The notes beneath the pieces were generated by a model. That model was given only the letters and a program-made list of their open reading frames with translations, did not search any database and had not been told where the DNA came from. The position numbers were made by a program, and so were the translations under genes. Positions 18,871 through 22,610 of a stretch of DNA of 22,610 nt are shown here, piece after piece. Position 1 is the first letter of the stretch. Every line of letters starts with the position of its first letter. Source of the stretch: a virus (taxonomy: Duplodnaviria; Heunggongvirae; Uroviricota; Caudoviricetes); the IMG/VR virus record IMGVR_UViG_2526164650_000003; one strand, 5' to 3'.

Positions 18871-19059
18871 ATGAACATTTATTTCAGAATAGTTATATCA
18901 CTGGCAATTATCGCATGTATTTACGGATTAATCGTTCCGGCCCTCATATCAATGAAGGATACGGTAGCAGTGATTTCTGGCTTTGCTCTGGCGTGTCTGA
19001 CCCCGCCCTGCATTTATGCCATTTATAAGGGTCTTTCTTTTTCTAAGGATAAAAGATGA
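18871..19059 (+). CDS. Small two-pass membrane protein (62 aa)
   Basis: Strong SD caggagg 6 nt upstream; two hydrophobic helices (IVISLAIIACIYGLIVPALI and VAVISGFALACLTPPCIYAIY); its stop overlaps the ATG of the next gene (ATGA). Confidence 0.6.
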   Translation: MNIYFRIVISLAIIACIYGLIVPALISMKDTVAVISGFALACLTPPCIYAIYKGLSFSKDKR

Positions 19060-19883
19060 AAAAAGTTATTCCTGCTTTAGCCCTTGTTCTGCTGACCACC
19101 GGACTTGTCGGTTGCGATCGCGTTGAGCCTGGTAATGTTGGCATCAAGGTAAACAAACTGGGCGACGATAAAGGCGTCGGAGAAGTGGTCGGTGTTGGGC
19201 GCTACTGGACGGGATGGAACACTGAGGTTTACATCTTCCCGACCTTCAAACAAATGAAGACCTACGATGAGCCATTCAGCTTCCAGATGAGTGACGGTAC
19301 AACCATCGGCTATCACATCGGCGTGGCCTACAAAGTTGATCCATCCAAAGTTACCACAGTCTTTCAGACCTACCGCAAAGGCGTGGACGACATTACCGAC
19401 ACCGACCTGCGCCAGAAGATAGCCGACGCACTCAACCGACTGGCCAGCAAAATGACCACCGACAAATTTATCGACGGCGGCAAGTCTGAGCTGCTGGATG
19501 CAGCTCTTAAAGACATTCAGGAAGAAATGACGCCCATCGGTATTCAGGTAATGAGCCTCTCATATGTGGGTAAGCCGGAGTACCCGCCTACTGTTATCGA
19601 CAGCATTAATGCCAAAGTCACGGCGAACCAGAAAACCCTGCAATGCGAGCAGGAAGTAAAACAGCGCGAAGCGGAAGCCAACATGTTGCGCGCGGAAGCT
19701 GCCGGACAGGCAGATGCGATTCGCACAAAAGCCCAGGCCGAAGCCGATGCTATTCGTTTACGCGGTGAAGCTCTGCGCCAGAACCCAAACGTTATGGAGC
19801 TGGAAGCCATCAACAAGTGGAACGGTACACTGCCGCAATACATGACCAGCGGTGCCAACACACCATTTATTCAGGTTAAGTAA
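19056..19883 (+). CDS. SPFH/band-7 (prohibitin/HflC-like) domain lipoprotein
   Basis: 275-aa ORF with a lipoprotein signal peptide and lipobox (LLTTGLVGC, Cys20), a band-7-like core and an Ala/Glu/Arg-rich coiled-coil tail (EQEVKQREAEANMLRAEAAGQADAIRTKAQAEADAIRLRGEA) typical of SPFH proteins. Confidence 0.65.
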   Translation: MKKVIPALALVLLTTGLVGCDRVEPGNVGIKVNKLGDDKGVGEVVGVGRYWTGWNTEVYIFPTFKQMKTYDEPFSFQMSDGTTIGYHIGVAYKVDPSKVTTVFQTYRKGVDDITDTDLRQKIADALNRLASKMTTDKFIDGGKSELLDAALKDIQEEMTPIGIQVMSLSYVGKPEYPPTVIDSINAKVTANQKTLQCEQEVKQREAEANMLRAEAAGQADAIRTKAQAEADAIRLRGEALRQNPNVMELEAINKWNGTLPQYMTSGANTPFIQVK

Positions 19884-19926: not shown

Positions 19927-20676
19927 ATGAATACTGTAACCATCAACAACAAACAGTTTCCGGTAATCGAATATCGCGGTCAGCGTGTTGTGACGCTGGC
20001 GATGATTGATGAAGTCCACCAGCGACCGGAAGGAACCGCGCGTGCAGCATTCAACCGAAACCGTGAGCATTTCATCAGCGGTGTGGATTATGCCGAATTA
20101 GGTGCGGACGTAATACGTACGGACCTCCCGGAAGGAACATTCTCTAAATTTGCACCATCGGGGATTGTACTTTTTGAATCAGGTTACCTGATGTTGACGA
20201 AGCCATTCAATGACGCCCTTGCCTGGCAGGTTCAGCGCGAACTGGTTAACAGCTACTTCCGCACTCGCACACCGCTAACGGAAATCGAGATGATCGCTGC
20301 GATAGCCGCCGACGCTGTTCGTCAACAGAAGCGCCTGAATCATGTGGAAGAACAGCTCGAAACAGTCACAGAAGCGGTGGAAACCATCAAACGCGGAAAT
20401 ATGCGCGCCGGATATGTCGGTTACCGCCAGGTGGTAGCCAAAAGTGGAATGAGTGACACCAAGTGTCGGAATCTGGTGAACGCATATCAAATTCCTACAG
20501 ACACCCACGAATTCATGACTCCGGACGGTCTGTTGTCTCGCAGGGCTATCGTCGAGCTTGAGCCATTTATGGCGGCGTTCCACCAAATGATGTCAGAGGC
20601 TGACCCACGCGGCACACGCTGGTATCACCCGAAGATGGGGCTTTTCCAGGTGATCGGATGGGAGGATAAAGCATGA
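19927..20676 (+). CDS. KilA-N/ORF6N-family DNA-binding protein (antirepressor-like) with unknown C-terminal domain
   Basis: Start at MNTVTINNKQFPVIEYRGQRVVTLAMIDEVHQRPEGTARAAFNRNREHFISGVDY, a pattern typical of KilA-N/ORF6N N-terminal domains of phage antirepressors; SD ggag upstream. The ORF-track version carries a 25-aa upstream extension. Confidence 0.55.
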   Translation: MNTVTINNKQFPVIEYRGQRVVTLAMIDEVHQRPEGTARAAFNRNREHFISGVDYAELGADVIRTDLPEGTFSKFAPSGIVLFESGYLMLTKPFNDALAWQVQRELVNSYFRTRTPLTEIEMIAAIAADAVRQQKRLNHVEEQLETVTEAVETIKRGNMRAGYVGYRQVVAKSGMSDTKCRNLVNAYQIPTDTHEFMTPDGLLSRRAIVELEPFMAAFHQMMSEADPRGTRWYHPKMGLFQVIGWEDKA

Positions 20677-21242
20677 TCATCCAGTCAAAACTTATTCGCG
20701 CCGCTCTGGTGTGCGCTGCTAAAAACGACGTTCGTTATTACCTGAACGGTCTTCACATCACGCCGAAACATATTGAGGCAACCAATGGTTCCGTGGCACT
20801 GCGCATGGCTCACGGCATCCGGACGAAGAAAAACATCATTGTCCAGTTCGAAGGGGGCGTCCCGGCCAAAGCCGAAACGACAGAGCTGATTTTTAGTAAA
20901 GAGCCGATCGCTGTTCATCGCGACCAGTTTCAGCGACGACTGTCCATTACCGGCATTAAACTGGTGGACGGTTGTTTTCCGGATTTGGATCGCATCATTC
21001 CGAAAAAGTTTGACCGCTGTACTCACCCGGTGCTCCAGGCGGGTTACCTGAGTTATCCAGAGAAGATGTTTGGTCGTGAGCGTAAATTTATTCCCGTCCA
21101 GTTACGTCCCTCCGGTGACGGGCAAGCGGTCAGAATTCAGTTTGATTCCATCATCAACTCAATGTATGGCAATCCTGAATTTGTTGTGATGCCTTGTCGT
21201 GATCATGGCGATTTCAACGTGGCTCAGGAGCATCCGGAATGA
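20673..21242 (+). CDS. Truncated DNA polymerase III beta sliding-clamp (DnaN) homolog, 189 aa
   Basis: Three collinear DnaN-like motifs: KNDVRYYLNG (cf. DnaN QDVRYYLNG, start of domain II), IKLVDGCFPDLDRIIPKK (cf. SKLVDGRFPDYRRVLPKN, domain II-III linker) and EFVVMPCR near the C-terminus (cf. AYVVMPMRL). Start overlaps the upstream stop (ATGA). Confidence 0.6.
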   Translation: MIIQSKLIRAALVCAAKNDVRYYLNGLHITPKHIEATNGSVALRMAHGIRTKKNIIVQFEGGVPAKAETTELIFSKEPIAVHRDQFQRRLSITGIKLVDGCFPDLDRIIPKKFDRCTHPVLQAGYLSYPEKMFGRERKFIPVQLRPSGDGQAVRIQFDSIINSMYGNPEFVVMPCRDHGDFNVAQEHPE

Positions 21243-21361
21243 AAATCGAATACCAGGACGCCGCAGGAGGTGAATCAATGAGCTGGCCTGATGCAATCGT
21301 AACTCTGGGGATGGTATTCGCAGTAGCGTTTGTTGTGTACTCGATTTGTCGATGGGGATAA
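21239..21361 (+). CDS. Small membrane peptide (40 aa from ATG 21239, or 27 aa from ATG 21278)
   Basis: MKIEYQDAAGGES-MSWPDAIVTLGMVFAVAFVVYSICRWG. The first ATG overlaps the DnaN-like stop (ATGA); the internal ATG has a perfect SD aggaggt 6 nt upstream. A single hydrophobic helix. Confidence 0.4.
   Translation: MKIEYQDAAGGESMSWPDAIVTLGMVFAVAFVVYSICRWG

Positions 21362-21766: not shown

Positions 21767-22610
<844 letters not shown>

Follow-up and report, generated by a model that had tools for sequence, protein, structure and literature searches.

We analysed a 22,610-nucleotide stretch of viral DNA (Caudoviricetes; IMG/VR virus record IMGVR_UViG_2526164650_000003), referred to below as the window. 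Near one end it carries a gene for a 189-residue protein, here called the mini-clamp, that is related to the beta sliding clamp DnaN of bacterial DNA polymerase III and that follows an ORF6N-type antirepressor-like gene. An initial annotation, made from the nucleotide sequence alone, had described the protein as a truncated DnaN homologue encoded by a prophage and coupled to the ORF6N gene. Both open reading frames (ORFs) were confirmed at the positions it gave. The two genes and the segments of the mini-clamp that matter for its interpretation are the following.

19927..20676, plus strand: ORF6N (KilA-N-type) antirepressor-like gene, 249 residues, start ATG at 19927, with matches to PF10543 and PHROG 1726
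20673..20676, plus strand: ATGA overlap of the ORF6N stop and the mini-clamp start, read in the sequence
20673..21242, plus strand: mini-clamp gene, 189 residues plus stop, PHROG 3007 member, product identical to RefSeq WP_000586688.1
20673..21017, plus strand: residues 1–115, a complete clamp domain corresponding to DnaN domain II (DnaN ~132–250) by phmmer, hmmsearch and hhalign
20727..20750, plus strand: DVRYYLNG, residues 19–26, equivalent to DnaN 150–157, holding pocket residues R152 and L155
20778..20792, plus strand: ATNGS, residues 36–40, equivalent to DnaN 171–175, with pocket positions T172, G174 and H175
20976..21002, plus strand: FPDLDRIIP, residues 102–110, equivalent to DnaN 241–249, with pocket positions P242, R246 and V247
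21018..21200, plus strand: residues 116–176, a single half-domain whose best match is the second half of DnaN domain III (~316–366), on four lines of evidence
21033..21050, plus strand: LQAGYL, residues 121–126, equivalent to DnaN 319–324, with subsite II positions N320 and Y323
21183..21200, plus strand: VVMPCR, residues 171–176, equivalent to DnaN 360–365, the C-terminal pocket strand with V360, M362, P363, M364 and R365

Taken singly, the mini-clamp sequence gave only marginal matches to DnaN families. It scored 17 bits against PF02767 (DNA_pol3_beta_2; E = 0.007, cut-off 27) and 21.2 bits against TIGR00663 (E = 1.2e-4, cut-off 137.65), the latter with residues 6–115 on profile positions 136–254, and a Pfam scan of the window mini-clamp returned no match to PF00712 or PF02768. 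The protein falls below the thresholds of all these curated DnaN families, and a phmmer search against the beta clamps of the PDB gave E values of about 2e-3. A profile built from 38 homologues matched E. coli beta with E = 1.3e-16 in hmmsearch and with a probability of 98.6% (E = 4.7e-16) in hhalign, so the alignment to DnaN by which the initial annotation had proposed to check its assignment is significant. The E. coli DnaN reference sequence used here was checked to be identical to PDB 1MMI over residues 1–366. Both phmmer and hmmsearch placed residues 5–116 of the query on DnaN 136–255, and the hhalign result was concordant. The three DnaN motifs on which the initial annotation relied are real and collinear with the E. 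coli protein: DVRYYLNG falls on DnaN 150–157, KLVDGxFPDxxRxIPK (residues 96–111) on 235–250 and VVMPCR on 360–365. A structure prediction of the mini-clamp alone, proposed as a further check, recovered the DNA-clamp fold with its beta-alpha-beta-beta-beta repeats, and a Foldseek search with the model found that its strong structural matches were clamps in every case. The 189-residue prophage protein is a true, conserved fragment of a bacterial DNA sliding clamp.

The mini-clamp is a member of PHROG 3007 (E = 5.9e-65, residues 1–179 on profile positions 3–188 of 190). An exhaustive hidden Markov model (HMM) search over 1.84 billion representative proteins identified 11,883 representatives at E < 1e-3, including 2,445 with E < 1e-10. 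Of these 11,883 matches, the best 150 are mostly 170–220 residues long, with a few shorter fragments, and the whole profile is covered; distant representatives likewise match PHROG 3007. Many phage protein models of about 180–210 residues in BFVD have template modelling (TM) scores of 0.7–0.8 to the mini-clamp model. By tblastn, a mini-clamp is carried by 253 isolated phage genomes, including Dhillonvirus, Kagunavirus, relatives of phage Vi II-E1, Vibrio X29-like phages and a Ralstonia autographivirus, and the gene is common in virulent phages and also occurs in lambdoid prophages. It is present in only 61 of 5426 complete E. coli genomes.

The ratio of nonsynonymous to synonymous substitution rates (dN/dS) had a median of 0.078 over 1173 pairs drawn from 61 unique enterobacterial gene sequences, which indicates purifying selection. 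A decaying, non-functional remnant of a full-length phage dnaN might be suspected because the window prophage is degraded by insertion sequences (ISs) and the residue equivalent to H175 of beta is substituted. However, the low dN/dS, the full-length ORF and the recurrence of the ~180-residue architecture in thousands of representatives as well as in the isolated phages leave this explanation with almost no probability, and we discarded a pseudogene on the strength of the dN/dS value and the size of the family. In a protein collection clustered at 90% identity, the exact 189-residue protein was placed under a 249-residue ORF6N protein, merging unrelated neighbours, possibly by way of read-through or fusion ORFs; because of this merged cluster, our first homology search gave nothing above 82% identity. 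Two candidate natural fusion proteins, P0015 and P0035, reflected downstream read-through and an N-terminal artefact and were uninformative.

In the model, residues 1–115 comprise one long helix (residues 5–14) and eight strands. No helix was modelled at residues 60–68, between the strands at 55–59 and 69–73, which is the site of helix alpha2, the second channel helix, of DnaN domain II. The following part contains a helix at 123–133 and strands at 142–146, 153–157 and 169–172. The initial annotation had read the protein as domain II plus a shortened domain III. The assignment of domain II stands, and the view of the remainder has to be refined, as the C-terminal ~70 residues are one half-domain rather than a generally shortened domain III. 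This half-domain is most likely the second, C-terminal half of domain III. Three distant members match Pfam DNA_pol3_beta_3 in one register, at profile positions 69/70–121 of 121 (E = 6e-4 to 0.04). A profile of the C-terminal columns scored 10.1 bits on DnaN 305–366 compared with −0.1 bits on DnaN 245–312. The motif IGFNxxYL...VVMPxR of distant members aligns nearly gap-free to DnaN I317–V324 and V360–R365. Finally, Foldseek alignments with TM scores of 0.54–0.61 span 255–265 columns and skip a gap of ~65 residues, whereas alignments of ~200 columns reach only 0.38–0.46. Some HMM alignments run the C-terminal half on DnaN 251–291 instead; this alternative register on the first half of domain III arises because the halves of a clamp domain are internal repeats.

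The alignments thus cover DnaN ~132–250 and half of domain III, in agreement with the proposed truncation. Domain I is absent, together with I78 and F106, and the protein has 189 residues where DnaN has three domains and ~366 residues. The dimer interface of beta is formed by I272 and L273 of domain III with I78 and F106 of domain I of the partner (PMC11139829). On the favoured register DnaN ~251–315 is dropped, so that I272 and L273 are deleted as well. Because domain I and the interface half of domain III are both absent, a canonical ring or head-to-tail dimer is impossible, as the initial annotation had already concluded. The monomer model shows only two long helices for its three half-domains, where a closed clamp ring around DNA is lined by 12. 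We infer that three half-domains adjoining in space remain in the mini-clamp and amount to about a quarter of the ring, with the partner-binding cleft but with neither side of the dimer interface.

These deletions bear directly on the suggestion that the protein heterodimerises with the host clamp or caps it. A clamp poison of this kind would use the dimer interface to pair with one protomer of host beta, and in this way cap or open the ring. Some HMM alignments do set the C-terminal helix on DnaN 254–291, including I272/L273, and K131 and F133 hardly vary within the enterobacterial subfamily. However, the interface helix is deleted on the better-supported register (DnaN 316–366), the other side of the interface is lost with domain I, and conservation is concentrated in the cleft, not on the edge. 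We consider such a poison very improbable, and capping of the host clamp was rejected since the interface elements that it needs are the deleted parts.

A processivity or tethering factor could in principle dispense with the canonical dimer, either as a monomer whose basic face contacts DNA, like UL42, or as a new oligomer in which half-domains III pair and four quarter-arcs form a D2 ring; in both cases the cleft would recruit the polymerase. The initial annotation had likewise raised a PCNA/gp45-like ring of different stoichiometry. The clamp fold and the intact cleft would suit this role, as would the charge of the protein: the isoelectric point (pI) is 9.2 for the query and 8.4 as the family median, most members being basic, compared with 5.25 for E. 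coli beta and 6.1 for the equivalent region of beta. Three contiguous half-domains would also make up a quarter of a 12-unit ring, and genome papers annotate the protein as a phage sliding clamp. Against this, the lambdoid prophages that carry the gene have no polymerase of their own, and in Dhillonvirus and Kagunavirus it lies on the opposite strand, far from the Pol I/helicase module. The termini of Dhillonvirus replication proteins show no clamp-binding motif. Of three channel helices to be expected, the model is missing one, that belonging to the second half of domain II. Taking both sides together, we regard a processivity function as unlikely. The herpesvirus proteins UL42, UL44, BMRF1 and PF-8 differ from the mini-clamp in having two full clamp domains, in belonging to the PCNA rather than the DnaN lineage and in showing no sequence similarity to it.

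The pocket through which beta binds its partners has two subsites, I (R152, L155, T172, G174, H175, R176, L177, P242, R246, V247, V360 and M362) and II (H175, N320, Y323, V344, M362, P363, M364 and R365) (PMC11139829). We examined these positions in an alignment that combined the query and 139 diverse representatives into a set of 140 members with a median identity to the query of 28%. Eighteen query positions are at least 80% conserved, and 10 of them belong to the pocket (R152, L155, T172, G174, H175, P242, Y323, M362, P363 and R365), compared with ~1.7 expected by chance (hypergeometric P = 1.1e-7). R21, equivalent to R152, is kept in 138 of the 140 members and L24, equivalent to L155, in 133. 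In the ATNGS segment, T is found at the T172 position in 130, G at the G174 position in all 140 and H at the H175 position in 125. The FPDLDRIIP segment has P in 138, R or K at the R246 position in 124 and V, I or L at the V247 position in 125. The LQAGYL segment has N or Q at the N320 position in 114 and Y at the Y323 position in 125, and the VVMPxR strand has M in 136, P in 130 and R in 116. Conservative exchanges at the pocket are R/K for R246, V/I/L for V247 and V360, and N/Q for N320. Altogether, the family majority has the same residue or a conservative replacement at 15 of the 18 pocket positions, and the cleft is retained at the level of sequence. The exceptions are R176 and V344, which are unconserved, and L177, which is L, A or M across the family and A in the enterobacterial clade; V344 is one of two pocket residues that are not conserved among real clamps either (PMC11139829).

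Variation at the rim of the pocket was found within the window's own clade. The position equivalent to H175, which in beta bridges both subsites, is codon 40 of the window gene (20790–20792) and encodes S. Among the 15 unique sequences of the E. coli/Shigella clade, which share at least 93% identity, S, F and C occur at this position but H does not. Just two further sites show three states in this clade, 106 (R245) and 121 (F319), and all three lie on the pocket rim. In the enterobacterial set, the most variable site is position 150, with 10 states; it corresponds to V344 in our first alignment, whereas the larger 140-member alignment puts V344 at position 152. The rim variability would fit tuning of ligand specificity and may reflect diversifying selection in what is a small sample.

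In bacterial clamps, the hydrophobic cleft between domains II and III docks the QLxLF-type clamp-binding motifs of polymerases, the clamp loader's delta subunit, Hda, MutS/MutL and other proteins. Since the pocket is the most conserved part of the mini-clamp, the cleft appears to be what selection keeps, and we propose from the sequence data that the protein binds peptides of the clamp-binding-motif type. Binding of clamp-loader or polymerase partners, one of several possibilities raised in the initial annotation, would accordingly be the one best backed by conservation. On this view the mini-clamp would be a cleft module without a ring, and it would engage clamp-binding motifs elsewhere than on the clamp loaded on DNA. 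Competition with host beta, or retention of one borrowed client, would allow it to redirect host proteins of replication or repair while the phage develops. We favour this explanation, with a confidence that falls somewhat short of even; decoy action and the identity of the target protein are speculative. Because lambdoid phages depend on host Pol III, the target would more likely be a non-essential client, such as translesion polymerases, mismatch repair proteins or Hda, or a clamp-directed factor, than the replicase. Phage proteins that exploit or attack this cleft or the host clamp offer precedents: MuC of phage Mu binds beta through clamp-binding motifs (PMC12867686), and Gp168 of phage Twort binds the clamp (PDB 7evp, among the structural matches listed).

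Several observations weigh against a cleft module of this kind. The pocket residues are the best conserved ones in DnaN generally, and their enrichment could partly reflect detectability or a role in the interface between domains II and III. The pocket also departs from that of beta, with L177 replaced by A in the enterobacterial clade, R176 by V or I and M364 by C. As S, F or C replaces H175 in the window's clade, the ligand may not be a canonical clamp-binding motif. The basic pI of the family would suit a tether on DNA no less than a decoy in solution. In addition, the window gene lies in a degraded prophage, cut off by an IS3-family insertion and with no promoter-like site nearby, and its expression there may be doubted.

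In its widest form, the proposal would make PHROG 3007 a large and overlooked group of phage proteins mimicking the client-docking cleft of the clamp and nothing else of it. Such proteins would soak up or re-route motif-carrying host proteins (translesion polymerases, mismatch repair proteins, Hda, the clamp loader or clamp-directed toxins) and would serve host takeover or counter-defence in temperate and virulent phages alike. We consider this generalisation possible but doubtful. If it were true, the variability of rim position 40 (H175 in beta; S, F, C, H, R or Y) would be the trace of an arms race in which ligand specificity is contested. In a more exotic version of the idea, quarter-arcs would join via their half-domains into a D2 tetrameric ring with two equivalent faces.

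The genes around the mini-clamp offer another approach to its function. The ORF6N gene matches Pfam PF10543 with 47.6 bits (cut-off 27.8; residues 13–92), which places it in the ORF6N family, and PHROG 1726 "anti-repressor" with E = 1.4e-69; its product is 100% identical to a protein named from Shigella flexneri. We compared 80 related IMG/VR prophage loci whose identity ranges from 60 to 100%. In most of them the upstream gene overlaps the mini-clamp start by 4 nt or 1 nt, and this gene is usually antirepressor-like with a variable N-terminal domain. Several of the upstream proteins have in common a C-terminal domain that contains the motif RW(Y/Q/H)HPx(M/F)G(L/G)F, and others end in ...GVDLKSLFGEKK, which hints at a partner with a motif-like tail. 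In the ORF6N protein of the window, the C-terminal domain (20380–20672; PHROG 6610) is far better conserved than the N-terminal domain. It occurs in 469 of the 5426 E. coli genomes, compared with 61 for the mini-clamp, mostly in Rha-family regulators and also on plasmids of ~90 kb, and is a mobile regulatory module.

Outside Enterobacteriaceae, the neighbours of the mini-clamp are unrelated or there are none; small ORFs and genes for Lar-like, Cro-like helix-turn-helix, ASCH, Dam and single-stranded DNA-binding (SSB) proteins were found. Dhillonvirus and Kagunavirus carry it by itself within the structural module, on the opposite strand and well away from the genes for the phage's own Pol I, helicase and SSB protein. 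These phages encode their own Pol I, whereas the lambdoid prophage carriers use host Pol III. The lack of a neighbour conserved across the family, together with the occurrence in both polymerase lifestyles, suggests a self-contained, host-directed function. No second clamp-like ORF that could supply a complementary other half was found in the window, in L001, in a complete Dhillonvirus genome or in the flanks of four other phage loci. A search for clamp-binding motifs at protein termini in the window, L001, the complete Dhillonvirus genome and ASO78B yielded only spurious ORFs and the tail protein GpZ. In the window, this minor tail protein (12146–12736, minus strand) has the C-terminal end QLRLHLSK, which fits the hexameric clamp-binding consensus QLxLxL, probably by chance.

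The coupling to the ORF6N gene raises the possibility that the mini-clamp is an adaptor for a DNA-binding regulator. It would bind the C-terminal region of the antirepressor-like (ORF6N/Rha) protein, and the pair would act on transcription or on the lysis-lysogeny decision, comparable to T4 gp45 with gp33 and gp55. Most of the 80 enterobacterial loci retain the overlap of ATGA or 1 nt although the upstream proteins differ in their N-terminal domains, and upstream tails such as ...HPKMGLFQVIGWEDKA, ...HPEFGGFVLRKDPKEIF and ...GVDLKSLFGEKK loosely resemble clamp-binding motifs, notably in "SLF" near the C-terminus. The merging of both proteins in the 90%-identity cluster may point to fusion ORFs, and MuC with host beta is a precedent (PMC12867686). 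However, phages phi467 and CharmingMan have the same ORF6N gene, C-terminus included, without a mini-clamp and with other genes after it. The wide occurrence of the C-terminal domain among E. coli genomes, mostly in Rha-family proteins, and the unrelated neighbours outside Enterobacteriaceae also speak against an adaptor. Furthermore, the "HPKMGLF" segment is invariant and aromatic-rich and was predicted at low confidence as a beta-hairpin in an AlphaFold2 model of the ORF6N protein that is itself too poor to use (predicted local distance difference test score 43, shallow alignment), so it probably belongs to a folded domain and not to a free tail. We hold the adaptor to be rather improbable. 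The coupling inferred in the initial annotation is real: enterobacterial prophages retain it, with an antirepressor-like gene upstream in most of the loci examined. The wider family does not share it, and the further suggestion that the two proteins work together is not established.

The window prophage itself is defective. Besides the genes described above, the following features are relevant to its state.

13771–14967, plus strand: IS110-family transposase
17740–18558, plus strand: IS3-family orfB
21239..21361, plus strand: downstream ORF for a hydrophobic protein of 40 residues, MKIEYQDAAGGESMSWPDAIVTLGMVFAVAFVVYSICRWG, RefSeq E. coli WP_255625547.1
21767–21964, plus strand: excisionase (DUF1233), 3'-truncated, profile positions 1–55 of 70
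21939–22313, minus strand: IS3-family orfB, truncated
22359–22607, minus strand: IS66 fragment

The four IS-related genes split a lambdoid prophage that has been wrecked by these elements, and its replication/immunity region and integrase are missing. The DNA of the window resembles that of Shigella flexneri. The minus strand of the window encodes the tail-tip protein J, the tail protein GpZ and antiterminator Q. The 3' end of the excisionase gene is cut by the adjoining IS3-family remnant and no integrase follows it, so the prophage is no longer able to excise. The 40-residue ORF starts within the mini-clamp stop (ATGA at 21239–21242), an arrangement of translational coupling. An intact relative in E. 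coli RMDEC364 has the order SPFH, ORF6N, "beta clamp domain-containing protein", 40-residue ORF, DUF4222, hypothetical ORF, xis and int, and its clamp-domain protein, WP_000586688.1, is identical to the window mini-clamp. This gene block is the accessory end of a lambdoid early-left operon. Just upstream of the ORF6N gene in the window (18871–19883, plus strand), a 62-residue membrane-like ORF overlaps the start of a 275-residue SPFH/Band-7 lipoprotein-like gene; the pair is conserved in the E. coli relative and gave no PADLOC match.

No sigma-70 promoter-like site was found between 18400 and 22000 on either strand, compared with 4.3 expected from shuffled sequences. This fits a long operon driven from an upstream promoter that is now severed by the IS3-family insertion. 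Because it lies downstream of this insertion in a region free of promoter-like sites, the window copy is probably silent, an ordinary family member in a dead prophage.

The location in the accessory early-left lambdoid region, near SPFH and ParE-like genes in a part of the prophage rich in such functions, might suggest an effector of anti-phage defence or superinfection exclusion that titrates clamp-dependent proteins of incoming phages, and the initial annotation had listed an anti-phage effector among its candidates. The variation of pocket-rim positions within a near-identical clade would also be compatible with it. However, PADLOC-DB v2 gave no match to the mini-clamp, ORF6N, SPFH or the three small neighbouring ORFs, and the family is widespread in strictly virulent phages. 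Moreover, the operon, which points toward xis and int and lacks a promoter-like site of its own, would be repressed in a lysogen. A defence effector therefore appears quite improbable to us, and we did not retain that suggestion.

The DnaN homology of the family is already public, in the RefSeq name "beta clamp domain-containing protein" and the UniRef name "DNA polymerase III subunit beta". For PHROG 3007 members the public names vary between "DNA polymerase III beta subunit", "sliding clamp" and "RusA-like Holliday junction resolvase"; the last of these has spread to numerous GenBank entries for phages (IME207, C1, LPSTLL, Skate, X29, Anchaing and others). It lacks support, as neither Pfam nor NCBIfam gave a RusA match and all strong structural matches are clamps. 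Phage genome papers describe the mini-clamp as a functional sliding clamp. Beyond such routine genome annotations, our literature search found nothing on the truncation, the loss of ring elements or the conservation of the cleft alone, and no experiment on any member; a paper on directionality factors of serine integrases proved to be a false lead.

With E. coli beta (PDB 1MMI/2POL), the mini-clamp shares sequence and fold homology over domain II and half of domain III, the motifs DVRYYLNG, DGRFPDxxRxxP and VVMPxR, and pocket subsites I and II. It differs in its length of 189 rather than 366 residues, in the missing domain I and I272/L273 half, in the absence of one channel helix from the model, in being basic instead of acidic and in forming no head-to-tail dimeric ring. 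PHROG 3007 proteins of named phages (TheodorHerzl gp07, ASO78B gp039, that of Salmonella phage IME207 and Vibrio phage X29 gp0012) belong to the same family over their full length and have the same ~180-residue architecture, but they are only ~30% identical to the window protein, come from virulent phages and have other neighbours. Full-length phage DnaN proteins (PHROG 947, ~368 residues) match the window protein weakly (E = 2.2e-4, profile positions 138–251); they are three-domain proteins, presumed to act as genuine ring clamps together with a phage replicase, whereas the mini-clamp is half their size. Mu MuC and Twort Gp168 bind the host clamp, and the mini-clamp instead imitates part of it, although the same host node would be manipulated. 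N4 gp8 targets the clamp loader's delta subunit and binds the loader, unlike the clamp-imitating mini-clamp.

The beta clamp is the hub of replication and repair in bacteria, and its cleft serves as a target for antibiotics. Hundreds of phage genomes label the mini-clamp as a functional sliding clamp or a RusA resolvase, and both labels are misleading. If our proposal is true, phages would encode a natural competitor for clamp clients in the form of a ring-less cleft protein. Such a protein could reveal which clamp interactions phages must silence or borrow, and could supply a minimal soluble cleft scaffold for ligand screening.

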